From an uncultured Clostridia bacterium (GTDB lineage Bacteria > Bacillota > Clostridia > Christensenellales > Borkfalkiaceae): DNA of 54,417 nucleotides. The notes beneath the pieces are model-generated. The model did not search any database. It was not told the DNA's origin and saw only the letters and a program-made list of their open reading frames with translations. Shown here one piece after another: positions 3,917 to 20,652 of the stretch. The position numbers and the translations under genes are program-made. The DNA lies in contig CAYRAY010000001.1 in assembly GCA_964422405.1 (NCBI GenBank), positions 1 to 54,417 on the forward strand. The letters are read 5' to 3'. Every line of letters begins with the position of its first letter. Within the stretch, counting starts at the first letter, position 1.

Positions 3917-3947
3917 AAAATTCCCGCGGGCGAACTGCTTTCAATCA

Positions 3948-3976
3948 GTTGACAAAGCGTAAAAAAAGGAATATAA
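3948..3976 (+). promoter_or_regulatory. orphan consensus sigma-A promoter
   Basis: TTGACA (3948-3953), exactly 17 nt, TATAAT (3971-3976). No credible CDS lies downstream. Confidence 0.65.
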
Positions 3977-3982
3977 TAAATA

Positions 3983-4250
3983 CGAAAGTCTGCGGTGTAC
4001 GGAGTTCGGCGTTTTTGCGGAATCCACGTTATTTATTCGGGAGCGGTCATTCGTGACGATAGACAAGGTCTGTTTTACGGAAAGTTCGAGGCGTCAAGAT
4101 GCGGCACCCACCTGCTATACAGCGGGTTCACCTCCGCCGAGGTGCGGCACAGGCGGATTTTTCCTTTGGAATCCCTTACCCGTTCGGGCAATGCACATAT
4201 TGCGCCTTTGGCAACAAAACCGAGCCTTCCGCTCGGATTTTCTTTTTTCT
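3983..4250 (+). ncRNA. candidate structured non-coding RNA of about 270 nt, class unknown
   Basis: Bounded by the consensus promoter and an intrinsic terminator. It contains many local hairpins, including GUCA-UUCG-UGAC, CACCUC-cgcc-GAGGUG, CCCG-uu-CGGG and GCAAU-gcacau-AUUGC, and an internal repeat TACGGA(AA)GTTCG(A)GGCG. ORFs across it are R/P/S-rich and read through terminators. Confidence 0.45.
4217..4250 (+). terminator. intrinsic terminator
   Basis: Hairpin CCGAGC-cttcc-GCTCGG followed by ATTTTCTTTTTTC. Confidence 0.7.
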
Positions 4251-4304
4251 TGCCACTTTTTCACAGAACAAGACCGCACTTTTCCACTTCTCCTTTTCAA
4301 AACA

Positions 4305-4330
4305 AAAACCGAGTCCCCGCTCGGTTTTTA
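4305..4330 (-). terminator. intrinsic terminator, potentially bidirectional, for the lipoprotein gene
   Basis: AAAAACCGAG-tccccg-CTCGGTTTTTATTTTT, with A and T tracts on both sides. Confidence 0.65.
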
Positions 4331-4353
4331 TTTTTACAGCATTTTTCCTTCCG

Positions 4354-4403
4354 TGTATACCTCCTGGGGGTGCGTTCCACACCCGAACGGAGCGTATCTT
4401 ACG
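4354..4403 (+). repeat. dispersed repeat family 1, copy A (divergent)
   Basis: GTGTATACC..GGGGTG-cgttcca-CACCC-GAACGGAGCGTATCTTAC. It shares the 3-prime arm and the hairpin architecture with copies B, C and D. Confidence 0.6.
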
Positions 4404-4487
4404 ACAAATCCGCACCCCACCACACTCGTTGCTACATAAAAGAACCATGCCAACGCGCTAAATTTGCGCTACCACGCTAAGCTTGCC

Positions 4488-5015
4488 TTACCTACGCCCT
4501 ATAAAAGTCACGCTTGTTGTGTCCGTTTTTTTCATAATGACAGTGAAACATCTTTGAAACGGAGCAGTCGAATAACCTGTTCCTTTAGATTCCTCCAATT
4601 TATAATAGATGTTTAATTGTTCGTTTTTTATTTTTATATCGTCGATATAATATTTTCGGCCAGGATAAATATCGGAAAAAATATACAAATATACAACCTG
4701 TTTCTCAAAGTCTACGTCCAATGCGCCTTTCCCGTAAATTGCGCTATAGTCCTCTTGATTATCAATGATAAATGTCCTATTGCTTGGAGCGGATTCGTCG
4801 TAATAATATTCATCTTCCGGATTGTTGGCGGTTTCATCGTAATTCGGATTTTTATAAAAGGCTTTCACATGATTTTCTTCCAAAAAAGACGGCAACACCC
4901 AAGATTCGGATTCACTATACATGGTCGCGCTATATTTAAGAACGAAACACCCCGTTAAAAAACATAAAAACGTAAACATAACCATAAACAAAGCTATCCA
5001 TTTTGTCTTTCTCAT
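4488..5015 (-). CDS. lipoprotein, function unknown
   Basis: MRKTKWIALFMVMFTFLCFLTGC carries a lipobox. RBS AAGAGGA. The start at 5015 is preferred over the track start at 5069. Confidence 0.65.
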   Translation of the reverse strand: MRKTKWIALFMVMFTFLCFLTGCFVLKYSATMYSESESWVLPSFLEENHVKAFYKNPNYDETANNPEDEYYYDESAPSNRTFIIDNQEDYSAIYGKGALDVDFEKQVVYLYIFSDIYPGRKYYIDDIKIKNEQLNIYYKLEESKGTGYSTAPFQRCFTVIMKKTDTTSVTFIGRR

Positions 5016-5300
5016 AAAAATCCTCTTTATTATTGATATAAAAACAGCGCATAGAATGCAAAGACACAACGCCCTACAATTCTACACGCTATAACGTTTG
5101 TTTACCAACGTCATCTATATGTTTTTCACAGCATAGACCACACGGTAAAATATAGCCATAGTTGGTCGGGTTTGTGTAAGTCTTTCACATTGTTTCCACT
5201 GTGCAATTCTAGCATAGCACAACTTCTTTCCCTTGTCAATATTTTTTCAAAAAATTTCGCCAATTTTTCCAAAAGTGTAATGTCTGTATATCCCCTATCG

Positions 5301-5376
5301 TGTCATACTGCCCCACCGCCTTGGCGGCGTGTGTCATACCGACCGAGGACGAAGTCCGAGCGGAGCGTATCTTACC
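5301..5376 (+). repeat. dispersed repeat family 1, copy B, plus an extra upstream half-site
   Basis: TGTCATACCGACCGA-GGAC-gaa-GTCC-GAGCGGAGCGTATCTTACC, preceded 31 bp upstream by TGTCATACTGCCCC. Confidence 0.7.
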
Positions 5377-5429
5377 ACAAAGCCGTATACATAAAGCAAT
5401 CGTTTCCCACCCCGACATTATATAAAATT

Positions 5430-5459
5430 AGCGGCGGCTGTCCAAAGACAACCGCCGCT
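5430..5459 (-). terminator. intrinsic terminator downstream of the CmpB-like gene
   Basis: Hairpin AGCGGCGG..CCGCCGCT followed on the minus strand by AATTTTATA. Confidence 0.5.
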
Positions 5460-5492
5460 TCCATTCTCTATTTTATTCTCAAAACCCCCACG

Positions 5493-6486
5493 TTACATCA
5501 TCGCAAACTGATACACCGTGTCAATAAACACCGCCAATGCCGACAGCGCAAAAAACACCATGGCAGGCTTTCGTTTTGCCGTCTGCACAAAGTTCCGAAT
5601 CGGCATAAACCCAAACCGCATAAACAGCGTAATCAGCACCGACCACGCCAACGAAATGGGCAAACTGACAAATCCCATAATGTTGAGCGGCAGCGTGGAA
5701 TAATCCCACAACCGCACCCCGAAAAAACCTTGATAGAACGCACCCACGGCAAGTTCGGCAATGCTCGGCAACAAAAAGGCGAAAAATAGATACGCCGCAT
5801 ACCGCCACACGGGCTTTTGAATTTTCTGCAAGCCGTGTCTGCCCTCTTTCGGCGTTCCCAACAAAAAGTACACCGTCATCAAGGTCACACCGTAAATGGG
5901 GCATATCCGTGTCAATAAACACCGCCAATGCCGACAGCGCAAAAAACACCATGGCAGGCTTTCGTTTTGCCGTCTGCACAAAGTTCCGAATCGGCATAAA
6001 CCCAAACCGCATAAACAGCGTAATCAGCACCGACCACGCCAACGAAATGGGCAAACTGACAAATCCCATAATGTTGAGCGGCAGCGTGGAATAATCCCAC
6101 AACCGCACCCCGAAAAAACCTTGATAGAACGCACCCACGGCAAGTTCGGCAATGCTCGGCAACAAAAAGGCGAAAAATAGATACGCCGCATACCGCCACA
6201 CGGGCTTTTGAATTTTCTGCAAGCCGTGTCTGCCCTCTTTCGGCGTTCCCAACAAAAAGTACACCGTCATCAAGGTCACACCGTAAATGGGGCATATCGG
6301 CAGAAACAGAAATCCTCTGTCCACCCATTCCCCTGCCTGCGCCGAAAGCAAAATCGTTTCCCACAGCCACCCAAAAAAGGAGAGGCACAAAAACAAAATC
6401 CAATCCTTGGCAAGCCGTTCCACTCTGTCTTGCACCAACGCCTCGACTTGCGCGTTTTCGTCTTCTAATACGTCCTTTCTTTCCAT
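5493..6486 (-). pseudogene. CmpB-like (putative ABC-transporter type IV family) membrane protein, frameshifted by an internal 391-bp tandem duplication
   Basis: The N-terminal part FFGWLWETILL...GFLFLPICPIYG is typical of the family. The reading frame breaks at the duplication junction (track ORFs 5521-6513 and 5493-6005). Deleting one copy gives a clean 200-aa ORF. Confidence 0.75.
5516..6298. repeat. perfect tandem duplication, 2 x 391 bp
   Basis: 5516-5906 is repeated at 5907-6297 with 1 bp of junction microhomology. The track shows identical 61-aa and 94-aa shadow ORFs in both copies. Confidence 0.95.
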
Positions 6487-6758
6487 CTCGTTTCCTCGTC
6501 TTTTCATGCCCACGACGGCAGTATACGGAATTCTCCGCTAAACTATGTACGCACCGCCTCCCAAGCCAACTTTCCATATTTTCGTGTATATTATACAATG
6601 TCAATATTAATATTTCTTTAAGAAAATGTTAAAATTTTGTGACAAAGAAAAAAATTTCCTTAACAATTCGTCGCAATGTGTTCAAATTCGACACTCCCCT
6701 CGTTTTTTGCCCACGATCCGAAACAGAACCGCCGCCCCGACCGCCGTACTACCACCGC

Positions 6759-6791
6759 AAAACGGAAAAGGCGCGCAAACCCTTGCGCGCC
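6759..6791 (-). terminator. intrinsic terminator of the 507-aa lipoprotein gene
   Basis: GGCGCGCAA-ggg-TTGCGCGCC followed on the minus strand by TTTTCCGTTTT. Confidence 0.7.
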
Positions 6792-6870
6792 CTGCCATAT
6801 TTTATAATTGCATTTTACCATTCCGTCCGCGCCGTGCCGAAAAGGCTCGCCGCAAAACTTCCGTCACCGC

Positions 6871-8391
6871 TTACGCAAGGTAACCAAAAACCACGCCTTC
6901 GTACACTTCGCTTTCAGGCGGCGCCGTCACCGTTGCCACGCTTGCGGAAAGTTCCACCACCGAAAAAGCAACGTCCACCTGCGCATACAGCGTGCCGAAA
7001 ACGTATTCTACCCACACGTCGTCCACAAAATCCGCGCCCTTCAACGCCATTTGCACGTCCGCTTTCAAACCCAAATCCAACGCACGGAGCGCATCACCTG
7101 CCTTGTTCAACGCAAGTCCTGCCGAAAGGGTAAAATCGTTCACTCTCGTGCCGCTGAAATCGGGAACGGACACGCCCAAATCGTCCAACGTCCTCTGCAA
7201 TGCCGCTTCCAAAGCCACCACAAACTTGCCGTAATAATCCACCGCCTCGTCAGGGTTTTCTTCGGGCGCGGAATCGTCGTTTTCGGCAAATACCTCGTCA
7301 CCCGTAACGTCGTCGTCCATGCCGCCGACCACCATGGCAACCACCATATTCACCGCGTCGCCAAGGCGAAGCGTGCCAAATTGCGCCTTCATAGTTTCCA
7401 GCTTAAATGCCTTCAACTGCAAAATCGTCTGTTGCGGCACGCCCAACACTTCCGTAAACAGAATGTTTGCCACGTCCGAATTCAAAATCCCGTCGTAAAT
7501 CCCTTGCAACGAAGTGCCGTATTTTGCCAACGCGCCGTCGATGGCGGTCAACGACTCCGTCACGGTCTGATTGCGGTATGCCTTCAACAAGCCGACAAGC
7601 CCTTCCGCCGTCAGCGCGGGATTGATTTTCACCAACACCTTGTTCAGCGTTTCGCCCAAGGTATCCGTGCCGTCGATGCCCGAAAGGAAATCCAACGTCG
7701 CATTCCAATCGGTCGCAAAATTTTTAGACAGAGTCACTTCCCCGTCCTTCACTTCGCCATTGAAAATCTGTTGCGCAACGACCTCTTGCGCCGCCGCCCA
7801 CATCTTCGCACTGTACTCCTTCACTTCCTTGGCGTTCATCAACTGTTCCGCCATCGTCAGCATTGCGGCGGCTTGTTCCGAGCTCGCAATCTGCCCCTTC
7901 GTCCAGTACCCTTTCGCCGCGGCAATCTCTTCCGCCGTCATATCGTCCTCGATCTCGTACGAACGCTGATAAATATACCCGTCCTTAACGATGATTTCCG
8001 CCTGCATAAACTCGTGTTCGAACTCCCCTTCTTCCCGTTCGGTTTCCGTCTGTTGATAGAAGAAGGAAAGGGCATAACCGTTTGCGCCGTCCTCGGTGAT
8101 GACCAGTTCCAAAACCCCTGCCTCCGTTTCTTCTTCCGTCAGCGTCCCGTCCACCGTCTCGCCATCGTCGCCGAAATATTCCTCTTTGGTATGCACGCGC
8201 ACGCTACCCGTAATTTTACAGCTTTTCGCGCTGTCCAAAGCCGTCGAAAGGACGTTTACGTATTGTTTAGCCGTTTTCGCCGCTTGCTTTTTGGCTTCTT
8301 CCTCGCTCATTCCCGTTTCGCCGCACGCCGTCGCGCCGCAAAACATCGTCAAACAAAGTGCCATACAAGTCGCTTTTTTCCACTGTTTCAT
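6871..8391 (-). CDS. large lipoprotein, function unknown
   Basis: MKQWKKATCMALCLTMFCGATACGE has a signal peptide and lipobox. GGAGG RBS. The long acidic ORF has normal coding composition. The start at 8391 is preferred over 8448. Confidence 0.7.
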   Translation of the reverse strand: MKQWKKATCMALCLTMFCGATACGETGMSEEEAKKQAAKTAKQYVNVLSTALDSAKSCKITGSVRVHTKEEYFGDDGETVDGTLTEEETEAGVLELVITEDGANGYALSFFYQQTETEREEGEFEHEFMQAEIIVKDGYIYQRSYEIEDDMTAEEIAAAKGYWTKGQIASSEQAAAMLTMAEQLMNAKEVKEYSAKMWAAAQEVVAQQIFNGEVKDGEVTLSKNFATDWNATLDFLSGIDGTDTLGETLNKVLVKINPALTAEGLVGLLKAYRNQTVTESLTAIDGALAKYGTSLQGIYDGILNSDVANILFTEVLGVPQQTILQLKAFKLETMKAQFGTLRLGDAVNMVVAMVVGGMDDDVTGDEVFAENDDSAPEENPDEAVDYYGKFVVALEAALQRTLDDLGVSVPDFSGTRVNDFTLSAGLALNKAGDALRALDLGLKADVQMALKGADFVDDVWVEYVFGTLYAQVDVAFSVVELSASVATVTAPPESEVYEGVVFGYLA

Positions 8392-8675
8392 GATAAAAAA
8401 CCTCCTTCGATTTTTCTTTATTATAACACGGATATATCGGCTTGTCAATACTTTTTACAAAAAAATCCGCAGCCCTGCACGCCACGGATTTTTACGGCTT
8501 TTTACCGTAACTTCTTTTTCGTTTTTTCGCCGCTCCGCACAACCTATATATATGCGGAACAGAGTGGCTTTCGTGCCGACTTTTTGTTAAGCAATTCCGT
8601 AAAAAATCAGGTGTTTTCTATAGAAAATTCTCGCCCTTCATTCACGGACAAAGCCACCGCTTCCTCTTCCGTTTT

Positions 8676-10049
8676 TTACACGGAAATCACGTCCTCGCCC
8701 TTCTTTTTGCTCCGTCCGCGATAGCCGTACTTCTTGCCGTTCGCAAGCAAGAATGCCGCCGAAAGCACCGCCGCGGTAAATTCCGCCACAATCACCGATG
8801 CCCACACCCCGTCCAAATCGAAGATGAGCGGCAACAAGAACACCGCCCCCACTTGGAAGAGCAACGTTCGCAAAAAGGAAATGATTGCCGAAACCAACCC
8901 GTTGTTGAGCGCGGTAAAAAATCCCGACCCGAAAATCGAAAAACCGCAAAACAGGAATTGAAAGGAGAAAATGCGGAATCCATGCACCGTCATCTGCAAA
9001 ATATGCTCGTTTTTGCTAACAAAAATCATAGCAAGCGGCTTGGCAAACACCTCGCAAATTGCAAACATCGCCAAGGCAAAAATGGCGGTCAGCACCAAGC
9101 TCTTTTTATAAATGCTTTTCAGCTCGCGCTTGTTTTCCGCGCCGTAATGATACCCCACAATCGGTGCAGTACCCACGGAATAGCCGATGAATACGGCGTT
9201 GAAAATCCACGCCACATACATCATTACGCCGTATGCCGCCACACCGTCCTCCCCTGCGTACTCCATCAACTGCACGTTATACAAAAGCCCGACCAAGGAC
9301 ATCGCCACGTTACTCAACAGCTCGGACGAGCCGTTCGCGCATACTTTCAGCAAGGATTTTATGTCCGCTTTCGGCTTGCCGAGGACAAGCAAACTGCCGT
9401 TGTTCTTGCGCAAGAAATAGAAAATGGGCAACACGCCGCCGACAATTTGGCTTGCCGCCGTCGCCAACGCCGCACCTGCCAAACCCAAATCGAACCCGAT
9501 GATAAACATCGCATCCAACACCATGTTGGTGATGCCTGCCGCAATGGTGATGACCAACCCGACCTTCGGTTTTTCCGCCGTCACAAACAAGCTTTGGAAC
9601 TGTTGTTGCAACATAAACGCAGGCAATGCGGCAAGGATAATCCGCCCGTACAAACCGCAATCCGATTGCAACGCGCCCTCCGCACCCAACACGCCTGCCA
9701 ACGGTTCTACAACGAACACGCCCAACACACCCATGGCAATCCCTACCGCCGCCGAAACGATGGTCAACATCGAAAAGAGCTGTTTCGCTTTTTCGTGGTT
9801 TCCCTCGCCCAGCGTTTTAGAAATGAGCGCGCTACCGCCCGTACCGAACATAAACCCGAACGAACCGAGAATCATAATAAAGGGATAAATGAAATTGATG
9901 GCGGTAAAAGGCGTGTCGCCGACAAAGTTCGACACAAAAAAGCCGTCCACCACGCCGTAGATAGAGGTAAACACCATCATCGCAATGGAAGGCAGTACAA
10001 ACCGCAATAACTTTTTATAATGGAAATGATCGGATAATCGAATCGCCAT
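8676..10049 (-). CDS. MATE family efflux transporter
   Basis: About 12 TM segments, with the N-terminal YKKLLRFVLPSIAMMVFTSIYGVVDGFFVSNFVG typical of MATE/NorM-like pumps. The start MAIRLSD follows GGAG. Confidence 0.8.
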   Translation of the reverse strand: MAIRLSDHFHYKKLLRFVLPSIAMMVFTSIYGVVDGFFVSNFVGDTPFTAINFIYPFIMILGSFGFMFGTGGSALISKTLGEGNHEKAKQLFSMLTIVSAAVGIAMGVLGVFVVEPLAGVLGAEGALQSDCGLYGRIILAALPAFMLQQQFQSLFVTAEKPKVGLVITIAAGITNMVLDAMFIIGFDLGLAGAALATAASQIVGGVLPIFYFLRKNNGSLLVLGKPKADIKSLLKVCANGSSELLSNVAMSLVGLLYNVQLMEYAGEDGVAAYGVMMYVAWIFNAVFIGYSVGTAPIVGYHYGAENKRELKSIYKKSLVLTAIFALAMFAICEVFAKPLAMIFVSKNEHILQMTVHGFRIFSFQFLFCGFSIFGSGFFTALNNGLVSAIISFLRTLLFQVGAVFLLPLIFDLDGVWASVIVAEFTAAVLSAAFLLANGKKYGYRGRSKKKGEDVISV

Positions 10050-10209
10050 TTTCACAACTCCTGCAAAGCGCAACCGCGCCGTTTTTATCGTTAACAGAAC
10101 AGCTTTCCGCCAACGACACACTACTTTTTATCGTCAGCAAAACGGTTTGCCGCCGCCCACGCGCCGACAAACCGCTCCGTTATTTCGTTATACACATTTT
10201 CTCCCTGAT

Positions 10210-10228
10210 TTGTGGAAACTTTCCACAA
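10210..10228. promoter_or_regulatory. perfect 9-1-9 palindrome, operator-like
   Basis: TTGTGGAAA-C-TTTCCACAA, about 160 bp upstream of the MATE start. It overlaps the -35 position of a possible TATAAC promoter on the minus strand. Confidence 0.4.
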
Positions 10229-10297
10229 GTTTTCTATCCAAACGCAGCCTTATCCGCAATTTTTATCGCCAACAAAGCAGAAAACCACCCCACCCCC

Positions 10298-10344
10298 TGT
10301 CATACCGACCGAACCCCGTAGGGGTGAGCGGAGCGTATCTTACC
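10298..10344 (+). repeat. dispersed repeat family 1, copy C
   Basis: TGTCATACCGACCGAA-CCCC-gta-GGGG-TGAGCGGAGCGTATCTTACC. Confidence 0.75.
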
Positions 10345-10353
10345 CTAAAACCA

Positions 10354-10415
10354 TTGTCATTTTTTAAGATATACTCCACTCACTCTCGCTCGGTCGATAT
10401 AACAAAAAATGACAA
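10354..10415 (-). repeat. dispersed repeat family 1, degenerate inverted copy C-prime, flanked by a 12-bp inverted repeat
   Basis: The reverse complement reads TGTTATATCGACCGA-gcgagag-TGAGTGGAGTATATCTTA, bracketed by TTGTCATTTTTT and AAAAAATGACAA. Confidence 0.6.
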
Positions 10416-10485
10416 ACCAGACAAATCCGCATGCCCAAACAATCGTTGTCCGCTAAAAGAATGTCGCTAACACGCTAAAACTACG

Positions 10486-11771
<1,286 letters not shown>

Positions 11772-11867
11772 CTACTCCTTCCGCCGCCCCCAAAAGCGCG
11801 GCTCTATTCTGTCACGGATTTCCCGCAACCATACATACTTTTTCTTGTTTCCGCCCATACTCTCGGC

Positions 11868-12026
11868 ATGAAACGAAACGTCCTCGCGCTTGTCGCCCTG
11901 CTTTTTCTCTCCGCCGTCGCCCTTACCGTATTCGGAATCCATAACGCGGAAAAACGAGAGTCCGCTCCCGTCTTTCAAACCAATCATGCACGGATTTTCC
12001 ACCGAAAACCGTCCTTTTTCCGCTAA
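11868..12026 (+). CDS. possible 52-aa signal-peptide/TM micro-protein (weak)
   Basis: MKRNVLALVALLFLSAVALTVFG... is followed by a plus-strand terminator, but no Shine-Dalgarno sequence is visible. Confidence 0.2.
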   Translation: MKRNVLALVALLFLSAVALTVFGIHNAEKRESAPVFQTNHARIFHRKPSFFR

Positions 12027-12049
12027 GTAATAACGACAGTACTCCCTTT

Positions 12050-12076
12050 GCCTTGCCACTTTCGGCAAGGCTTTTT
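12050..12076 (+). terminator. plus-strand intrinsic terminator with no annotated plus-strand gene
   Basis: GCCTTGCC-actttc-GGCAAGGC followed by TTTTT. Confidence 0.55.
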
Positions 12077-12135
12077 CCGGAAAAATTTGCCGTAAAATTC
12101 ACCGTAAAAAACAGAACGCACGCCTTAAAAACCGC

Positions 12136-12798
12136 TTACTTCGCGCCGTACGTTTCGCGATAAGCGTACATAGCAGGCAAATGCTCCTTGCCGTCGATGA
12201 CGCCGTTTTCAATGGCAGAAATAATGTCGTCCATCGTCACCACCGAATACACGTCAATGCCAAATTCGCGCTTGGCTTCCGCCACGGCGGACAAATCGCT
12301 CGTCAAACCCTTTTCCTTGCGGTCCACGGAAATGACCATGCCCACCACCTGCACCTTTGCCGCCGCTTCCAGCTTGGGCAAAATTTCGCGCAGGGCTTTG
12401 CCCGACGTCATAACGTCCTCGATAATGATGACCTTTTCGCCGTCGGCAAGCTGTTTCCCTACGAACAGACCGCCTTCGCCGTGGTCCTTCACTTCCTTTC
12501 TGTCGAAGCAATAGCTGATGTCCCTGTCATACTCCTTGGCAAGCGCAATCGCCGTCGCCACCGAAAGGGGAATCCCCTTGTACGCAGGACCGACCAGCGT
12601 TTCCGCATGCAGACCGTTTTCGTGAATGCACGCCGCGTAATATTCGCCGAGTTTTGCAAGCTGCTTGCCCGTTTTATAGTTGCCCGTATTGATAAAATAG
12701 GGGGCAAGTCTGCCGCTCTTCAACGTAAACTCGCCAAAGCGCAAAACGCCGTTCTGCACCATAAACCGAATAAATTCTTCCTTGTAAGTGTAAGCCAT
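12136..12798 (-). CDS. pyrE: orotate phosphoribosyltransferase
   Basis: 220 aa with the PRPP-binding motif VIIIEDVMTSGKA and pyr operon context. Confidence 0.9.
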   Translation of the reverse strand: MAYTYKEEFIRFMVQNGVLRFGEFTLKSGRLAPYFINTGNYKTGKQLAKLGEYYAACIHENGLHAETLVGPAYKGIPLSVATAIALAKEYDRDISYCFDRKEVKDHGEGGLFVGKQLADGEKVIIIEDVMTSGKALREILPKLEAAAKVQVVGMVISVDRKEKGLTSDLSAVAEAKREFGIDVYSVVTMDDIISAIENGVIDGKEHLPAMYAYRETYGAK

Positions 12799-12869
12799 AT
12801 TTTCTCCTTCTTCCGCTCCCTTTTTTATCGGAAACGGAACGTCATTTTTTCGCTATATTCTTCCCACCG

Positions 12870-13787
12870 TCAACGCTGATGCACTTGCAACGTGCCCGTC
12901 AGCTCGGCAATGTTTTTCACACCGTGCCCGTCGCACCAAGCGTTCAAATCGGCAATGATTTTAGGCATTGCGTACGGATCGGTAAAATTCGCCGTACCCA
13001 CTTGCACCGCCGTCGCGCCCGCCATCAAAAACTCAATGGCGTCCGCCGCGCAAGTAATGCCGCCCATACCCACCACGGGGATTTTGACCGCTTGCGCCGC
13101 CTCGTATACCATACGCACCGCAATCGGCTTTACGCCAGCGCCCGAAACGCCGCCCGTGTTGTTGGCGATAATGGGTTTTCTGCGCTCGATATCGATTGCC
13201 ATGCCCGTCAGGGTGTTAATTAACGATACGCAATCCGCGCCGCCCTTTTCCGCCGCCATCGCGTTGACGGCTATGCTTTCCACGTTGGGGGAAAGTTTTA
13301 CCATCAAAGGCGTATTCTTCAACGCACCCTTTGCCGCCGCCGTCACCTCTTGTACCGACTGCGGTTTAATGCCGAACGCCATACCGCCGCTTTTCACGTT
13401 TGGGCAGGAAATGTTGAGTTCCACCATATCCACAAGCCCGTCCAACCGTGCGCAAATTTGTGCGTATTCGTCCAAGGTCTTGCCTGCCACGTTGGCAATC
13501 ACGCAAACATCCCTTTCTTTCAGCCATTCCAAATCCTCGCGGATAAAATGCTCCACACCGGGGTTTTGCAACCCGACGGCATTCAAAATCACTCCGCGCG
13601 ATTCCGCAATACGCGGTGTAGGATTCCCCAACCGCGCCTCCAACGTCATGCCCTTGGTCGAAATGCCGCCCAACACGCCGATGTCGTACAACTCGTTAAA
13701 TTCCCGTCCGAAACCGAACGTTCCCGATGCCGCAATTACGGGATTTTTCAACTGCACGCCGCAAAGCTCTACCGATAAATTCGCCAT
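12870..13787 (-). CDS. pyrD: dihydroorotate dehydrogenase B, catalytic subunit
   Basis: MANLSVELCGVQLKNPVIAASGTFGFG...NISCPNVK. Start chosen at 13787. Confidence 0.9.
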   Translation of the reverse strand: MANLSVELCGVQLKNPVIAASGTFGFGREFNELYDIGVLGGISTKGMTLEARLGNPTPRIAESRGVILNAVGLQNPGVEHFIREDLEWLKERDVCVIANVAGKTLDEYAQICARLDGLVDMVELNISCPNVKSGGMAFGIKPQSVQEVTAAAKGALKNTPLMVKLSPNVESIAVNAMAAEKGGADCVSLINTLTGMAIDIERRKPIIANNTGGVSGAGVKPIAVRMVYEAAQAVKIPVVGMGGITCAADAIEFLMAGATAVQVGTANFTDPYAMPKIIADLNAWCDGHGVKNIAELTGTLQVHQR

Positions 13788-13929
13788 ACTCCGTCCTTTC
13801 CGCGTCCTGCCGCGGTCCTTCTCCGTCGTTCCTTCTAAAAACGAGTCATCTTCGCGCATTCTTTTGCGCTCTCTATCACTATCCTAACCAAGCAAACACT
13901 GCCGCCTGCCCTTCCGCCGCCCACCGATT

Positions 13930-14376
13930 TTATCGGTCTATCGGCGCGTTGCAACCGCTCAAACGGCGGCTCAACAATCGCTGTTGCGTTTCCGCCACGT
14001 CCGCCACAAACGGATAGACGAACGTCTTGCCGTCCAACTCGATGACGAGGCTTCCCCAACGCACGCCGATAATGGAATAATACAGCCGATACGAAACGTC
14101 CAAGACCTCTTTCATCGCATACCTGCCCTCGGGTAATTGCATTTCCGTGTCCGAAACGGAAACAATTTCATCAGGCAATTTTTTCCAACAAACGCACCTC
14201 CAAATACCCAAACCGCCTATGGCGACGCCGATGAGGATACTCACCACACCGGGCAAAAGGGTATACAGCCCCAGTGCGCACAAAACCACGCCGAAGCCCG
14301 TAAACAGCACACCGAGCGTAATCACCGCAATAAAATACGGCAACAGCCTCTGTTTTTTTCTTGCTATACATTCCAT
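13930..14376 (-). CDS. small membrane protein inserted between pyrK and pyrD
   Basis: 148 aa with two N-terminal TM helices and a soluble C-terminal domain. The start lies 2 nt after the pyrK stop. Confidence 0.55.
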   Translation of the reverse strand: MECIARKKQRLLPYFIAVITLGVLFTGFGVVLCALGLYTLLPGVVSILIGVAIGGLGIWRCVCWKKLPDEIVSVSDTEMQLPEGRYAMKEVLDVSYRLYYSIIGVRWGSLVIELDGKTFVYPFVADVAETQQRLLSRRLSGCNAPIDR

Positions 14377-14378
14377 GC

Positions 14379-15134
14379 CTATAAAACGACCTCCTTGGCG
14401 TTGAACACGGGTCCGTCCTTACAAACGCGGGCATTTTTACCGTTCGTCTGCTGACAAACGCACACCAAGCACGCGCCGATGCCGCAACCCATGCGTTCTT
14501 CTAAGGATACGTAGCAGAGCAAACCCTCCCGTTCCGTCACCTGCTTTAAGGCACGGAGCATCGGGGTCGGGCCGCACGCAAACACTACGTCGGGGCGGTT
14601 GCCTTTTTTCAAATCCGCCTCAAAGGCTTGCACGGCGTTCATCTGCGCGCCGTAACTGCCGTCGTCGGTCACCGCAATAAATTTTTGCGCTTTTACAAAT
14701 TCTTCCACGCCGCAAACCGCCGCGCGGTTTCTGTAACCGATATATGCCGCAATCTCTTTTTTATCGCCGTATTGCCGCAATACCGAAATCAGGGGAAACG
14801 TCCCCACGCCGCCGCCGACCAAGGCGATTTTCTTTTCGTTTTCTTCGGCAAAGAACCCGTTGCCCAGCGGCATCAGCACGCTTAAACGCGTACCTGCCCC
14901 CATGCTTTTCAAAATTTGCGTGCCTTCGCCTTTGATTTGGTAACAGAACGTCGCCGTGCTGCCCTCCGTTTTGCAAATGGCAATGGGACGGCGCAAAAGG
15001 TGTGTGCCGCCTACGGAAAGATCGGCAAACTGCCCTGCGCGGACGTCGACGACCTCGCCCAAATCCACCGTCAGCTCGTAAATGTTTTCCGCAATGTTTC
15101 TGTTGCTCAATACGGTTGCGTTAAAGTCTTTCAT
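14379..15134 (-). CDS. pyrK: dihydroorotate dehydrogenase electron-transfer subunit
   Basis: FAD/NAD-binding fold with a C-terminal Cys cluster CGIGACLVCVC for a 2Fe-2S centre. Confidence 0.9.
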   Translation of the reverse strand: MKDFNATVLSNRNIAENIYELTVDLGEVVDVRAGQFADLSVGGTHLLRRPIAICKTEGSTATFCYQIKGEGTQILKSMGAGTRLSVLMPLGNGFFAEENEKKIALVGGGVGTFPLISVLRQYGDKKEIAAYIGYRNRAAVCGVEEFVKAQKFIAVTDDGSYGAQMNAVQAFEADLKKGNRPDVVFACGPTPMLRALKQVTEREGLLCYVSLEERMGCGIGACLVCVCQQTNGKNARVCKDGPVFNAKEVVL

Positions 15135-15203
15135 GCTCTCTTTCCTTTGCCCTTGGCACTCTCGGCAACGTTGCCGCGTGGACGCATTTTTTGTCCGTGT
15201 TCC

Positions 15204-16115
15204 TTAGTCTGCACGCATTTCGCCGATGACGGAAGACAAGTCCTTTTGCATATCGATACAAGCCTGTCTTGCCGCCTCGTAATAGCTGCCGCCGTTCTTT
15301 TTATACGCACACAAAATCCCGCGCGAATTGTTGACGACGCCGCCCAAACCGTTTTGCTTAAAGCAGCTTTTCAGCATTTCCGCCTTGCCGCCTTGCGCGC
15401 CGTAACCGGGGATTAAGAAGAAGGTGTGGGGCAGAATACTGCGCAAGCGCGCCGCCTCTTCGGGGTGGGTTGCGCCGACCACCGCACCGACAGCGGAATA
15501 GCCGTATCTACCGACCGTGCTCTCCCCCCATTTTTCCACCAAACCGCCCATATACTCGTACATGGGTACGCCGTTTTGCAAAACGACGTTTTGAATTTCC
15601 GCGCCCGACGGGTTAGACGTCTTGACCAAAACAAAGATGCCTTTGTCATGTTTTTCACATTCTTCCACAAAGGGCAAAATGCCGTCCGAACCCAAATACC
15701 CGTTTACGGTGACGTAATCGGAAGGGAATGCGGAAAGGGTGTTCTCATTGACCTGCGAACAGCCCAAAAACGCCTTGGCATAGCAAGCTGCGGTAGAACC
15801 GATGTCGTTGCGCTTGGCGTCTGCAATCACGTACAAACCCTTGCTTTTTGCATATTGCAGGGTTTGGTAATAGGTCTGCATACCTGCCGCACCATACATT
15901 TCGTAATATGCAATTTGCACCTTGACGGAAGGCACGATGTCCGCAATGGAATCGATAATTTTTTTGTTGAACGCCAACACGCGTTCCGCCACGTCCTCAA
16001 AGTTCGTCGCCCCTTGACGCATATCGTCGGGAAGGTAGTCGAACAAAGTATCTAACCCCACGCAGGTCGGGTTTTGGGTTGCTATAATGCCGTCAATCAG
16101 CTTATCCGTAATCAT
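15204..16115 (-). CDS. pyrF: orotidine-5-phosphate decarboxylase (long type 2)
   Basis: 303 aa with operon context and the motif DAKRNDIGSTA. Confidence 0.85.
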   Translation of the reverse strand: MITDKLIDGIIATQNPTCVGLDTLFDYLPDDMRQGATNFEDVAERVLAFNKKIIDSIADIVPSVKVQIAYYEMYGAAGMQTYYQTLQYAKSKGLYVIADAKRNDIGSTAACYAKAFLGCSQVNENTLSAFPSDYVTVNGYLGSDGILPFVEECEKHDKGIFVLVKTSNPSGAEIQNVVLQNGVPMYEYMGGLVEKWGESTVGRYGYSAVGAVVGATHPEEAARLRSILPHTFFLIPGYGAQGGKAEMLKSCFKQNGLGGVVNNSRGILCAYKKNGGSYYEAARQACIDMQKDLSSVIGEMRAD

Positions 16116-16147
16116 GCTTTTTTCACTCCTAAAATGTTCTGTTGCGT

Positions 16148-17410
16148 TTACGCTTGATACTTCACTTCGCCGTCCACCACGGTATACTTCACCGCGCCGA
16201 ACAGTTTTTCACCGCCGAAGGGGCTGTTTTTGCCTTTGCTTACAAACGCTTGCGGATCGACCACCCAGCTTTCGTCCAAGTCCGCTATGGTGAAATCCGC
16301 CGCCTTGCCCTCTGCAATTTCGCCGCCGTCCAAACCCAAAATTCGGGCAGGAGCGTAAGACATTCTTTCCGCAATCTGCGGCAGAGTCAAAATCCCCGTC
16401 TTGTACAGCTTGGTCACGGCAAACCCGAACGAGGTTTCTATGCCGCTGATCCCGAACGCCGCCTGTTCGTATTCCACATTTTTATCGTCGAAGTGGTGAG
16501 GCGCGTGGTCAGTGACGATACAATCGATGGTGCCGTCTTGCAAGCCTTCCAAAATGGCTTGCTTGTCCCTTTCTTCACGAATGGGCGGATTCACTTTGGT
16601 GTTGGGGTCGTAGCCCTTGATAATCTCGTCCGTGAACGCATAGTAATGGGGGCAGGTTTCTGCCGTCACTTGCACGCCTGCCGCCTTTGCGTTGCGGATC
16701 ATTCTCACGCCGCTGTACGTCGAAACGTGGCAGATATGCACGGGGCAATCCAGCTCCTCCGCCAACGAAATTTCTCTGGCGATAATCACGTCCTCTGCGC
16801 TACGGGGAATACCGCGGAGTCCTGCAATGGTCGCGCTCAACCCTTCGTGTACGCAACCGCCGTCTACCAGGTCCTTATCCTCGCAATGGCAAAGGCAACG
16901 CACGTTAAAGCCCTTGGCGTATTCCATGGCAAGCCGCATCAATCTTGCGTTTTTCACAGTGACGCCGTCATCGGAAATCGCCACCGCACCCGCCTTTTTC
17001 ATGCCGCCGATTGCCGCCATTTCCTCCCCTTTCAAACCCTTGGTGATAGCGCCGATGGGGTGGATTTTGCAAAGACCCACTTCCTTGGCACGAGCTTTGA
17101 TGTAGGTCACCACCACTTTATTATCGACGACGGGGTTGGTGTTGGGCATACAGCAGATTTGCGTAAATCCGCCCTTGACCGCCGCCTTTGCACCGCTTTC
17201 TATGTCCTCTTTCTTTTCAAATCCCGGTTCGCGAAGATGTACGTGCATATCGATAAGTCCGGGGAACACGTGCAATCCGTCCGCACGGATTTCCTTGCCG
17301 CCGTCGGCAGGGATACAATCGGCAATCTTGACGATTTTGCCGTTCTCCACCAAAATGTCCTTCTTTGCTACGCCGTCCTTAAAAACAACTTGTCCGCCGC
17401 GAATAATCAT
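16148..17410 (-). CDS. pyrC: dihydroorotase
   Basis: 420 aa with the amidohydrolase motifs DMHVHLREPG and DHAPH. Confidence 0.9.
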   Translation of the reverse strand: MIIRGGQVVFKDGVAKKDILVENGKIVKIADCIPADGGKEIRADGLHVFPGLIDMHVHLREPGFEKKEDIESGAKAAVKGGFTQICCMPNTNPVVDNKVVVTYIKARAKEVGLCKIHPIGAITKGLKGEEMAAIGGMKKAGAVAISDDGVTVKNARLMRLAMEYAKGFNVRCLCHCEDKDLVDGGCVHEGLSATIAGLRGIPRSAEDVIIAREISLAEELDCPVHICHVSTYSGVRMIRNAKAAGVQVTAETCPHYYAFTDEIIKGYDPNTKVNPPIREERDKQAILEGLQDGTIDCIVTDHAPHHFDDKNVEYEQAAFGISGIETSFGFAVTKLYKTGILTLPQIAERMSYAPARILGLDGGEIAEGKAADFTIADLDESWVVDPQAFVSKGKNSPFGGEKLFGAVKYTVVDGEVKYQA

Positions 17411-18339
17411 ACCCCTCTCTCCTTTCTGTATTCGTTCAACAGCGTCAACGCCGACATACGTACGGCAACGCCCGAAAGCACTTGATCCTCGATACGGCTG
17501 CGCTCGTGGTCGATGACGCCGCTGGTCAGTTCTACGCCGCGGTTAACGGGACCGGGGTGCAACACAATGGCGTGCGGTTTGGCAAGCGAAAGCAATTCTT
17601 CATTGACGCCGAAGTTCGCCGCGTATTCGCCGAGCGAAGGGAAGTTGCCTGCCTTTTGGCGTTCCAACTGAATACGCAAACCCATAACGGCATCTGCTCC
17701 GTCTAACGCTTCTTCACGGGAGCGGCACACCTTTGCACCCAACTCCTCGATCCCTTTCGGCAACAGGGTGTTGGGGGCATACATCGCCACTTCCGCGCCC
17801 ATGGTCTTTAAGCCGAATAGATTGGATTTTGCCACACGGGAGTGTTTGATATCCCCCAAAATTGCCACCTTTAAGCCTTTCAGCGTGCCAAAGGTCTGGC
17901 GCAGAGTCAGCATATCCAACAAAGCTTGCGTGGGGTGTTCGTTAATGCCGTCGCCTGCGTTGAGGACGCTCGCCTTTACCGTTCTTGCCAAAAGGTAGGG
18001 CGCGCCGCCCATGGGATGACGCATCACCAAAAAATCGTTCTTTTGTGCATCCAATGTTTTGCCCGTATCCACAAGCGTTTCCCCTTTCGCCACCGACGAA
18101 GTGGAAGCCGCGATGTTGACAGTGGTCGCGCCGAGGTATTTTGCCGCTTGCTCAAAGCTGGTTCTCGTTCGGGTGCTGTTCTCGTAAAAGAGAATGGTCA
18201 CCGTTTTCCCGTCTAAAACGCTCGTCTTTTTTTCGCCGCGCTGAATACGGGTTTTGTATTCGTGCGCCAGATCGAGGAGTTCGGTAATCTCCCCTTCGGA
18301 CGCGTCGATAAGTCCCAACAGATCCTTTCCTTTCAGCAT
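17407..18339 (-). CDS. pyrB: aspartate carbamoyltransferase catalytic subunit
   Basis: Motifs STRTR and HPTQ are present. 4-bp overlap with pyrC. Confidence 0.9.
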   Translation of the reverse strand: MLKGKDLLGLIDASEGEITELLDLAHEYKTRIQRGEKKTSVLDGKTVTILFYENSTRTRTSFEQAAKYLGATTVNIAASTSSVAKGETLVDTGKTLDAQKNDFLVMRHPMGGAPYLLARTVKASVLNAGDGINEHPTQALLDMLTLRQTFGTLKGLKVAILGDIKHSRVAKSNLFGLKTMGAEVAMYAPNTLLPKGIEELGAKVCRSREEALDGADAVMGLRIQLERQKAGNFPSLGEYAANFGVNEELLSLAKPHAIVLHPGPVNRGVELTSGVIDHERSRIEDQVLSGVAVRMSALTLLNEYRKERGV

Positions 18340-18375
18340 ACTCTGCTCCTTTGTATTTTCGTGTTCGGGGTATCA

Positions 18376-18421
18376 AATAAACGGGGGAATTATACATACC
18401 CGTTTAAACGATAGTTTAAAC
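18376..18421 (-). promoter_or_regulatory. candidate transcription attenuator in the pyrB leader
   Basis: On the minus strand, GTTTAAAC-tatc-GTTTAAAC can pair with itself. It overlaps the 5-prime arm of AAACGGG-(12 nt)-CCCGTTT followed by ATTTGAT. No PyrR-box-like sequence was seen. Confidence 0.35.
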
Positions 18422-18440
18422 ACATTTTTTCTCATTTTTT

Positions 18441-18469
18441 ATTATAACACTTTTTTTTATAAAAGTAAA
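18441..18469 (-). promoter_or_regulatory. pyr operon promoter
   Basis: Minus strand reads TTTACT, 17 nt, TATAAT. Confidence 0.6.
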
Positions 18470-18524
18470 GAGTTCGACAGCCGTTTTTAGCGACCTTTCA
18501 AACTCTTTTTCCGTGATTTTTCCG

Positions 18525-19220
18525 TTAATAAATTTGGACGAGCTTAAACCCCGTCTTATCGCACGAGGTCAAAAGGTATTCCGTCTTCCCCCGCCACGTC
18601 TTTAAGGGGAAATAGGTATTGCCGTGGATATGCCCAAACACAACCTTGTCCACACCGTAATTTTGGAACAAATCGGTGAACAGCGTATCGGGGTTTTTGG
18701 GGCTGAACGGCGGATAGTGAATCATCGCCACCATTCTATCCCCCTCCTCGCGCAGTTTTTCCGCCGAGTGAAAGGCAAGGCGGAAACGCTCCGCTTCCCG
18801 TAAGTACAGCTTTTGGTCCTGCTCGGTATAGTCCGCGCTGCCGGGGCAAGTCCACCCGCGGGAGCCGACGAACACCACGTCGCCGATTTTGGCGGCGTCC
18901 GTCTGCAAGAACACGAAATTCTCGTCGGGGGCGTTATCGCGGAGCTTAGTGATGCCGTTCCACCAAAAATCGTGGTTGCCGCGGATAAACACCTTTTTGC
19001 CGGGCAGATCGGCAAGGGCGCGCAAGTCCGTCAACGCATCGTCCAGCTTCATCGCCCAACTGATGTCCCCTGCAATCAGCACCACGTCGTCGGGTTGCAC
19101 CACGGCGCGCCAATCGGATTTTATTTTTTCAAAATGCCCTGTCCAATTTTCCCCGAACACGTCCATGGGCTTGTCCGAAGAAAGGGAAAGGTGCAAATCG
19201 CTAATCGCATATATCTTCAT
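18525..19220 (-). CDS. metallophosphoesterase family protein
   Basis: Calcineurin-like phosphoesterase motifs ISDLHL, GDISW and GNHDFWW. Confidence 0.8.
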   Translation of the reverse strand: MKIYAISDLHLSLSSDKPMDVFGENWTGHFEKIKSDWRAVVQPDDVVLIAGDISWAMKLDDALTDLRALADLPGKKVFIRGNHDFWWNGITKLRDNAPDENFVFLQTDAAKIGDVVFVGSRGWTCPGSADYTEQDQKLYLREAERFRLAFHSAEKLREEGDRMVAMIHYPPFSPKNPDTLFTDLFQNYGVDKVVFGHIHGNTYFPLKTWRGKTEYLLTSCDKTGFKLVQIY

Positions 19221-19226
19221 GCTTAC

Positions 19227-19255
19227 AGTATAGCCGATAATTTTGTTTTTGTCAA
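19227..19255 (-). promoter_or_regulatory. promoter giving an apparently leaderless mRNA
   Basis: Minus strand reads TTGACA, 17 nt, TATACT, then only GTAAGC before the ATG at 19220. Confidence 0.5.
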
Positions 19256-19374
19256 GTTTTGCAAGGGCAAAAGCGGACGATCTCCCCTTGAAAAATAAGA
19301 AGATCGCCCTGTTTTTTATCCGCCTTGCTATTTTATCCGCCGCCGTGGCGGTTCCGCAAAAAATTTATCGGCAA

Positions 19375-20037
19375 TTATCGGCAAGTTTTGCACGCCCCTG
19401 CCTTGCTCTGCGGATACAGCGGCAGTTCAAAGAACCCTGCGCACACCTCTTGCGAATATTCCTGTGCAGGCGGAATGGCGCAATAGCCGTACGTCGGCAC
19501 CAACAATTCCACCGTCATGGCGATTTTCAAAATGACCGTCGCGCAGAAGTTGACGGTGAATCCCTCTGCCTCGCTTACGAACGTGCCGTCGGGCGCAACC
19601 ACGCTGACCACCGCATTGACGTTGAAGGGCATAATGGACGGGGCAGGCACGTACAGCAACACGTCTACGGGCAAGGACACCGTACCCGTCGCCCTGCCGT
19701 CTGCGCCCGTTGCGTCGGTATACAACACCTCTACGGGAACGCTGACCGTGCCTTGCACTCTGGCGCACGGTCTGTCCGTCTGCCGCTCGATGTTCAAGTT
19801 GGTTATGGTCGCCGCACTGCCCGTGGAGCGGGCGGAAACGAAGGTCAAAGGATATGTAGGCGTGGCAGGGGTGAGGTCGGTGATTGCCAAAGCGTAGTTT
19901 TCCATCTGCGTTTGCCGAATACACGCATCGAAGATTTTTTCCGCCTGAATACACACCTTTTCCGTCAAGCCGTTTAAGGGATTGCCCGTGATTGCCGACG
20001 GGCATTTATCCGATTGAAAGTTGGAATAAAAGGACAT
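19375..20037 (-). CDS. Cys-containing hypothetical protein, beta-rich
   Basis: 220-aa ORF with a strong GGAGG RBS and coding-like composition. I recognise no family with confidence. Confidence 0.55.
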   Translation of the reverse strand: MSFYSNFQSDKCPSAITGNPLNGLTEKVCIQAEKIFDACIRQTQMENYALAITDLTPATPTYPLTFVSARSTGSAATITNLNIERQTDRPCARVQGTVSVPVEVLYTDATGADGRATGTVSLPVDVLLYVPAPSIMPFNVNAVVSVVAPDGTFVSEAEGFTVNFCATVILKIAMTVELLVPTYGYCAIPPAQEYSQEVCAGFFELPLYPQSKAGACKTCR

Positions 20038-20167
20038 GGTTACCTCCTTGGTACGAAAGGACGAAAAAGGGCGACGCGCCGTGTTTTTTCATCTTTCGCA
20101 TTGTCGTTTTCTTACTACATCGTATGCCGAAGCCGCCACCGTTTGTGTTTTTTTGTCGGCAATGCGG

Positions 20168-20458
20168 TTACGGAAAGGGAATACGGACGGGCATACCCAA
20201 ATAGAAAACGTCGGTGCCGTTGAGGGCGAAAAAGGCGGATTCGCTGCCGCAAAGCAGGGTTTTGGTGTCCCCTTCTTGGACGATATAGGGGTTGCCGCGC
20301 GCCGTGGGAATGGTTAAAATTTGCCCTGTATACGGTTGGGCGGTCAGGGCGTTGGTCTTGGCAAGCAAACGGGCGGAAACGAAAAAATGCGCAGCAATTT
20401 TTTCCAGCGTTTGCCCCGGTTTCACTTGGTAATACATACAAAATTCCGTGTTCAGCAT
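20168..20458 (-). CDS. LysM domain protein
   Basis: YYQVKPGQTLEKIAAHFFVSARLLAKTNAL fits a LysM fold. The start is uncertain (20458 or 20437). Confidence 0.6.
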   Translation of the reverse strand: MLNTEFCMYYQVKPGQTLEKIAAHFFVSARLLAKTNALTAQPYTGQILTIPTARGNPYIVQEGDTKTLLCGSESAFFALNGTDVFYLGMPVRIPFP

Positions 20459-20542
20459 TTGTTTATAGCCTATGCGGCAGGGCGGAAAAATAGTACGACG
20501 TAACGAAAAACGTATACGGAGTTCCGTTTTTATTGCCGTTTT

Positions 20543-20589
20543 TAAGATACACTCCGCTCACCTGCGTTGCAGGTTCGGTCGGTATGACA
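20543..20589 (-). repeat. dispersed repeat family 1, copy D
   Basis: The reverse complement reads TGTCATACCGACCGAA-CCTGC-aac-GCAGG-TGAGCGGAGTGTATCTTA. The adjacent TACGGAGTTCCGTTTTT (20515-20531) also matches 3997-4015. Confidence 0.75.
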
Positions 20590-20652
20590 GCAAGATGAGT
20601 TTTGACATAGACAAGCGTTCTATTTTTGGGGTGAGCGGCGTAGAATAGCGGT

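Follow-up and report, generated by a model that had tools for sequence, protein, structure and literature searches.

An apparently undescribed intergenic hairpin repeat of uncultured gut Clostridia, with covarying arms and a variable tip

What kind of element keeps its two ends nearly constant, changes its centre from copy to copy and keeps that centre complementary to itself? The question is raised by a contig of an uncultured Clostridia bacterium of the family Borkfalkiaceae (CAYRAY010000001.1, assembly GCA_964422405.1), of which a stretch of 54,417 nt, called the window throughout, was analysed. A preliminary description of this DNA listed five copies of a dispersed repeat of 45–50 nt and read the pattern as selection for a single-stranded fold rather than as drift. 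Followed into other genomes, the repeat is a real, strongly structured family of intergenic hairpins of about 46 bases, carried by some uncultured gut Clostridia, that has apparently gone undescribed; searches of the literature turned up no account of it.

Copies were gathered by scanning a species-representative genome collection with a 22-base two-arm pattern, which gave 39 loci amounting to 327 kb. These hold 151 copies by fuzzy search and 171 by a covariance model. The left arm is numbered here as U1 G2 U3 C4 A5 U6 A7 C8 C9 G10 A11 C12 C13 G14 A15 and the right arm as G1' A2' G3' C4' G5' G6' A7' G8' Y9' G10' U11' A12' U13' C14' U15'. The fold, a rod-like hairpin in three tiers, begins with a single-stranded foot, (G)UGUC, followed by a 5-bp basal stem with a bulged pyrimidine (Y9'). 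The middle consists of a tandem G·A, one pair, a bulged C (C4'), one further pair and a second tandem G·A. Beyond it stands a terminal hairpin that is free in sequence and length, and the unit closes with the 3' tail CU(A). The foot, T1 G2 T3 C4 in DNA letters, is kept in at least 150 of the 151 copies.

The paired positions of the arms change together. Over the 151 copies, A7:U11' is A:U in 136 and U:A in 14, C8:G10' is C:G in 108 and U:A in 41, C12:G5' is C:G in 131 and G:C in 19, and C13:G3' is C:G in 97 and U:A in 35, while C9:G8' is invariant. The non-Watson–Crick positions G10·A7', A11·G6', G14·A2' and A15·G1' are 96–100% conserved, and Y9' and C4' are unpaired bulges, both on the 3' strand. 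A CCG/CGG register proposed by minimum-free-energy folding was ruled out by the same pair counts. For the test of covariation, we aligned the 38 distinct 46-mers without gaps, so that no bias could enter from structure-guided alignment. In this alignment, 97.8% of the cells pair, against 72.8% in shuffles, and the covariation score is 0.732, against 0.230 in shuffles; none of 500 shuffles reached the observed value, and controls with a slid register gave at most 0.18. An alignment of 150 sequences gives the same picture. The covarying hairpin of the preliminary description is thus well founded, and the picture can be extended: covariation runs through the conserved arms too, and they also contain the two near-invariant tandem G·A motifs and the two bulges.

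The tip behaves differently from the arms. The terminal hairpin measures 7–18 nt in most copies and falls into many sequence subfamilies, and one hairpin can be found with differing arm variants. Among 92 distinct tips there are 17 triloops, nine of them GNA, and 47 tetraloops, 29 of them GNNA, most closed by C:G. GNA and GNNA tips closed by C:G form a class of unusually stable DNA mini-hairpins, of which d(GCGAAGC) is an example. One subfamily, seen at 4060–4205 of locus L037 and at about 7140–7290 of locus L008, has a 5-nt insertion in its left arm (TGTCATATCG-TATTC-GACCG); its short terminal hairpin has given way to conserved cargo of about 110 nt. A tandem array of element variants at about 1275–1520 of locus L023 (minus strand) includes a 28-nt minimal form, TGTCATCCCGACCGTAGCGGAGGGATCT, which has a compensated basal stem, AUCC/GGAU, and lacks the terminal hairpin.

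The two strands can be told apart by their exceptions. In the stems, 17–20 G:T pairs stand against 0–1 A:C pairs (p about 2e-5), and among stem mismatches, there are 35 of the G·A/A·G type against three of the C·T/T·C type. A mutational strand bias does not account for this asymmetry, because units occur in both chromosomal orientations. It follows from the one-sided wobbles that the strand reading TGTCAT... is the one selected to fold, and a plain duplex binding site is excluded. With paired positions that covary and wobbles that are one-sided, the choice of selection over drift in the preliminary description stands. As to the molecule, the evidence leans to single-stranded DNA as more likely than RNA: there is no orientation bias and no terminator tail, the window copy called B below lies between a terminator-like and a promoter-like site, and GNA triloops are found among the tips. 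Three metatranscriptome runs gave nothing over the copies, and the only matches were 6S RNAs of relatives at 90–95% identity.

In the window itself, a covariance model (R1) built from copies in other genomes only was run over the full length. With filters off, it returned exactly five copies and then nothing until a match at E=5.9, so the earlier inventory is complete for the window. Direct reading of the sequence and searches with the arms place the five copies at the same positions, all within the first 20.6 kb, and the stems that had been quoted (GGAC/GTCC, (A)CCCC/GGGG(T), (A)CCTGC/GCAGG(T) and GGGGTG/CACCC) are correct. The two-arm pattern ATACCGACCGA-N(4-24)-GAGCGGAG has 3 matches in the window where 0 are expected. 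With up to 3 mismatches, the right arm alone has 5 matches against 0.11 expected and the left arm 5 against 1.25; the left-arm matches are copies B to E and a fragment at 5301, and the diverged left arm of copy A goes unmatched.

The top-scoring copy of the window is copy E (20543..20589, minus strand; model match 20545–20589, 58.9 bits, E 1.9e-12), which is canonical and has the terminal hairpin ACCTGC AAC GCAGGT. Copy C (10298..10342, plus strand; match 10298–10340, 53.6 bits, E 4.1e-11) is also canonical, with the terminal hairpin ACCCC GTA GGGGT. It lies between the 3' end of trpS and the 5' end of a MatE transporter gene, both on the minus strand, as assigned by Pfam matches of the neighbours. 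Copy B (5332..5374, plus strand; match 5332–5372, 52.3 bits, E 9e-11), canonical as well, is made up of TGTCATACCGACCGA, the hairpin GGAC GAA GTCC and GAGCGGAGCGTATCTTA. It is antisense to both neighbouring genes, and a terminator and promoter scan puts a terminator-like hairpin (5459–5430, minus strand) and a promoter-like site (5239–5211, minus strand) on its two sides. Situated 31 nt upstream of copy B, TGTCATACTGCCCCA (5301..5315, plus strand, 3 mismatches) is a weak, possible left-arm fragment that no right arm follows.

The remaining two copies have changed more. Copy D (10365..10404, minus strand; match 10367–10404, 37.5 bits, E 4.6e-07) is diverged and has the short hairpin GC GAGA GU; its basal stem is compensated, with AUAU/AUAU in place of AUAC/GUAU. 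Copies C and D (10298–10404) stand tail-to-tail across a 26-nt gap and are the only pair in the window. The perfect 12-bp inverted repeat reported around copy D is exact, with TTGTCATTTTTT at 10354–10365 and AAAAAATGACAA at 10404–10415, and carries the element's own TGTCAT 5' end on either side of the copy. Copy A (4354..4401, plus strand; match 4354–4399, 25.0 bits, E 6e-04) is degenerate. Its right arm, GAACGGAGCGTATCTTA, is intact (1 mismatch in the right-arm search), its left arm is altered to UAUACCUCCUGG, and its outer G·A tandem has turned into Watson–Crick pairs (CCUCC/GGAG). The terminal hairpin of this copy is GGGGTG-CGTTCCA-CACCC, and its fold is predicted at -20.3 kcal/mol.

Outside the window, most of the 39 loci come from a single metagenome-assembled genome (MAG), that of an uncultured Christensenella sp. 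(CAYVXW01). Further carriers are Oscillospiraceae MAGs (CAYPIJ01 and SVRE01), Candidatus Onthoplasma (family Christensenellaceae), one Christensenellaceae MAG, two Clostridia MAGs and one Firmicutes MAG. One short copy-bearing contig is binned as Bacteroidaceae; it shares its co-assembly with CAYVXW01 and was probably binned wrongly. No copies occur in 906 kb from 80 metagenome loci that contain the closest TrpS relatives (73–96% amino-acid identity), nor among the viral contigs searched, and because of these absences, we describe the distribution of the family as patchy and lineage-specific. In public gut metagenomes that contain the window organism, contigs end inside copies, where the summed depth rises four- to five-fold, and for copy B many differing flanks meet at 5331/5332 and at 5374. 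Therefore, those samples contain more copies, and the joints mark the ends of the unit. A clean empty site was seen neither in the 80 loci with TrpS relatives, which reach at most 82% nucleotide identity and share no synteny downstream of trpS, nor in the contigs from public DNA runs, which break inside copies.

The copies behave as an intergenic repeat. Outside open reading frames (ORFs) of at least 110 aa lie 136 of the 151 copies, though such ORFs cover about 77% of the DNA, and the copies inside ORFs fall mostly in spurious frames that cross repeat arrays. Their neighbours are ordinary housekeeping genes; of the copies flanked by co-directional genes, 28 are sense and 35 antisense. Most units are preceded by a G (123 of 151) and followed by an A (131 of 151); no direct repeat of 2–5 nt is enriched at any offset in these copies, so a target-site duplication is not seen. 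One identical 46-mer is present at six loci with differing partners, which indicates recent copying or conversion. Where units stand in head-to-head neighbour pairs, the spacer is 16–19 nt in 36 of 43 cases; units of a smaller, tail-to-tail class lie about 22 nt apart. The preliminary description had likened the inverted pair of the window to a REPIN, a hairpin-forming doublet of repetitive extragenic palindromes (REPs). A dispersed repeat with inverted doublets is what we find as well; the C/D pair, however, is tail-to-tail, whereas the common doublet elsewhere is head-to-head. The partners in a doublet carry differing terminal hairpins.

In the Christensenella-like MAG, intergenic arrays of 400–560 nt (for example, L018 4700–6170) are reminiscent of bacterial interspersed mosaic elements (BIMEs). 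Their building blocks, joined in many combinations, are the element, small AAGGNT/ANCCTT hairpins, several families of spacers and a second family. The second family reads TGTCATTCTGA...GAAGAATCT, or TGTCATTCTGA-hairpin-GAAGAATCTAGAACG, and has the same foot and tail as the element.

Of the explanations considered, we give about an even chance to a non-autonomous repeat of the REP/REPIN/BIME kind, selfish or domesticated, that is recognised or copied as folded single-stranded DNA. The grounds are that the fold covaries, identical units stand at differing loci, the copies are intergenic regardless of transcription, they form inverted doublets, and the family is lineage-specific. On this reading, copies would arise or persist by way of a folded single strand, most likely of DNA. 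A putative structure-specific protein would read the G·A loops, the conserved bulges and the unpaired flanks UGUC and CU while taking no account of the terminal hairpin, which would be needed only to nucleate folding. Such a role would explain both the freedom of the tip to vary and its wealth of very stable GNA and GNNA loops closed by C:G. By analogy, the partner may be an HUH/Y1 nuclease of the IS200 type or of the REP-associated tyrosine transposase (RAYT) type.

REPs, REPINs and BIMEs are the nearest known kind. A REP is a hairpin of 21–65 nt whose foot has a conserved guide tetranucleotide on its 5' side; in canonical REPs this is GT[AG]G, 0–2 nt 5' of the hairpin foot, and atypical feet are known in some Y1 transposase classes (PMC6006769). 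Group 1 RAYTs are present in Clostridia (PMC5581495). With REPs, REPINs and BIMEs, the element shares a short imperfect palindrome, intergenic position, high copy number, a conserved single-stranded 5' tetranucleotide, a conserved CT beside the hairpin, inverted doublets of fixed spacing, mosaic clusters with other motifs and lineage specificity. It differs from them in that its stem contains two bulges and two tandem G·A loops, the latter near-invariant, and in a hypervariable tip of many subfamilies that differs between doublet partners. The subterminal left-end and right-end (LE and RE) hairpins of IS200/IS605 insertion sequences and of their miniature derivatives, the palindrome-associated transposable elements (PATEs), resemble it in being imperfect hairpins with a 5' guide tetranucleotide, in leaving no target-site duplication and in being strand-specific. 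The LE and RE hairpins are recognised as single-stranded DNA, as we propose for the element. Unlike them, the units are single hairpins rather than LE...RE pairs, and no transposase gene lies between or beside them in the DNA examined. The BOX, RUP and SPRITE repeats of Streptococcus pneumoniae, ERIC and the Correia repeats are likewise modular, hairpin-forming intergenic repeats found in mosaic arrays; they are longer (about 100–150 nt and more), have other sequences and lack the double tandem G·A with a variable hairpin.

Several observations weigh against a REP-like repeat. The foot is UGUC and not the canonical GT[AG]G. With differing terminal hairpins on its partners, a doublet would not form a single long REPIN hairpin. 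Arms and hairpins are found in many combinations, which a simple copy-and-paste history does not predict, and no insertion or excision polymorphism was caught in the loci and metagenome contigs compared. The 47 tetraloops, 29 of them GNNA, and the tandem G·A pairs would fit RNA equally well. A candidate enzyme is also missing from the DNA at hand. A tblastn search with E. coli RayT against the window and the 327 kb of the 39 loci had a best E value of 0.45 and found no RAYT or Y1 homologue. The ORFs bracketed by units encode RNase H, YolD-like, CBS/HepT-like and unknown-function proteins and a reverse transcriptase, with no transposase among them. The Pfam scan of 178 ORFs, run in two batches, speaks for the 25 commonest families of each batch, a depth at which a single Y1_Tnp match would be invisible.

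The reverse transcriptase (366 aa, L037 4289–5386) matches Pfam RVT_1 and, weakly, group II and DRT-type enzymes. It is part of a likely diversity-generating retroelement at L037 3500–5386 that is ringed by element copies, with an AAC/AAT-rich, template-like repeat at about 3540–3660, upstream of the reverse transcriptase gene. We considered this enzyme as the partner of the element and rejected it, as it belongs to the retroelement.

The explanation that survives best beside a REP-like repeat is a structured RNA module, serving as a protein docking site or RNase barrier and hence as a stabiliser, processing site or sponge, and multiplied only secondarily. Functional RNAs often contain tandem G·A motifs and GNRA-like loops, and covarying pairs combined with near-invariant G·A and GNRA-type tetraloops are a classic signature of such RNAs. 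The confinement of G:U-type wobbles to one strand would follow naturally, a head-to-head doublet would offer each direction of transcription one correctly oriented unit, and stabilisation of mRNA is a known effect of E. coli REPs (cited in PMC6006769). What counts against such a module is that the copies show no preference relative to flanking genes, sense and antisense being nearly balanced, and that copy B has a terminator-like hairpin on one side and the next promoter-like site on the other. Absence from the closest relatives further implies that no conserved cellular role is served, and GNA triloops with C:G closing are more typical of DNA. Rfam searches agree with the preliminary description that no known family matches: at gathering thresholds, the only match in the window is 6S RNA, and even at E up to 5 over 3900–21000, nothing overlaps a copy. 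We regard an RNA module as possible, though unlikely.

Named RNA motifs and signals were considered one by one. A kink-turn was rejected, because C13:G3' and C12:G5' pair directly beside the G·A tandems and the bulges are limited to single nucleotides of the 3' strand. Hammerhead and C/D-box readings of the letters CUGA...GA were discarded, since neither the spacing nor the covarying pairs fit. No ribozyme-like core, which had been held out as a possibility, emerged from the structure. An intrinsic terminator was dismissed too: the terminator scan called no copy, there is no U-tract, the 3' flank being A and then mixed bases, and there is no orientation bias.

A rather improbable alternative holds that the element is a recognition module coded by structure, in which a fixed socket can be fitted with any terminal hairpin or with over 100 nt of cargo. 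The socket would consist of the two tandem G·A loops, the two bulges and the UGUC and CU flanks, read by a putative protein on single-stranded DNA or RNA. The reshuffled arms, hairpins and spacers could then reflect site-specific strand exchange at the socket, as at integron attC sites.

That the element is itself an analogue of attC, a folded single-stranded DNA recombination site read by a recombinase, we consider very unlikely. Its conserved paired arms, single extrahelical bases on one strand, unpaired spacers and free terminal structure of 7 to over 100 nt do recall attC, where a folded strand is the substrate, and the strand asymmetry fits. The arm consensus, however, lacks the R and L cores (RYYYAAC / GTTRRRY). 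The units stand in both orientations among housekeeping genes and form no co-oriented cassette arrays, and no integrase was seen beside them, a weak check that extends to the 25 commonest Pfam families per batch. We see similarly little chance for a MITE (miniature transposable element with inverted repeats) derived from an insertion sequence with a DDE transposase, with the arms as remnants of terminal inverted repeats. Many intergenic copies and identical units at several loci would be expected of a MITE, and in CAYVXW01 there are composites with the second TGTCAT-starting family, some of which end TGTCAT...ATGACA. Against it, the outermost bases, TGTC and ATCT, are not complementary, no offset shows a target-site duplication, no unit was found to enclose a gene, and the conserved G·A, compensatory changes and one-sided wobbles point to a folded strand rather than to a duplex site for a transposase. 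A duplex site bound by a regulatory or nucleoid protein, or a tag of the DNA-uptake type, is hardly credible: highly conserved arms and dispersal suit it, but it needs neither hairpin nor compensatory changes, leaves G:T without A:C wobbles inexplicable, and would have its half-sites shifted relative to each other by a centre of 7–18 nt and beyond.

Other features of the same region were examined beside the copies. A 6S (SsrS) RNA gene occupies 3984–4163 on the plus strand (Rfam RF00013; 54.3 bits, the gathering score being 46.4). A perfect TTGACA-17-TATAAT promoter (3949–3977) precedes it and terminator-like hairpins (4220–4236 and 4304–4329) follow. A 17-nt block shared between 3997–4015 and 20515–20531 had been proposed as a companion of the element, but its first copy falls inside the 6S RNA gene. 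The part in common is only an exact 10-mer, plus an indel, and by our estimate the match near 20515 is no better than chance, as thousands of exact 10-mer pairs are expected in such a window. The suggested kinship with another repeat, family 2, is not supported either. Its 12-mer, CGCATACCTGCC, has 8 sites between 14116 and 48552 with 1 mismatch allowed, against 0.25 expected. No site of it scores with the covariance model of the element, and the letters common to the two amount to CATACC; the 12-mer is real and separate from the element.

A 60-nt segment (GACAAATCCGCA...TCGTTG...TAAAAGAA...CGCTAAA) occurs at 4403–4462 and 10420–10479 with 72% identity; each time it adjoins an element copy and lies shortly downstream of a minus-strand gene's stop codon. 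A second repeat family, tied to gene ends, may be represented here. Upstream of the start of the MatE gene, there are three copies (10082–10111, 10125–10154 and 10260–10289) of a 30-nt motif, TTTTTATCG(N)AACA(R)AAC..., which has a weaker fourth copy at 12822. Two tandem duplications are also present. A perfect one of 391 bp in a CmpB-like gene (5516–5906 / 5907–6297) is absent from two public metagenome runs, whose contigs (X1 and X4) otherwise match the window almost perfectly and join 5515 to 5907; it is either an assembly artefact or strain-specific. The other, of 230 bp in trpS (10854–11313), is single copy in all 80 loci with TrpS relatives, the closest of which has 82% nucleotide identity.

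Much work has been done on small interspersed hairpin repeats of Proteobacteria and streptococci, and hardly any on those of gut Clostridia. For the carrier genomes, the copies have a practical side, in that they break short-read assemblies and might be used as strain markers. The anatomy of the element, with near-invariant non-Watson–Crick motifs, covarying pairs and a variable tip, pinpoints what a partner protein must read. If that partner is a RAYT-like nuclease with UGUC as its guide, the REP–RAYT paradigm would extend to Clostridia; if it is something else, a new system of nucleic-acid recognition would be at hand. Should the fixed socket with exchangeable tips prove true, gut Clostridia would have a new system of recombination or processing.

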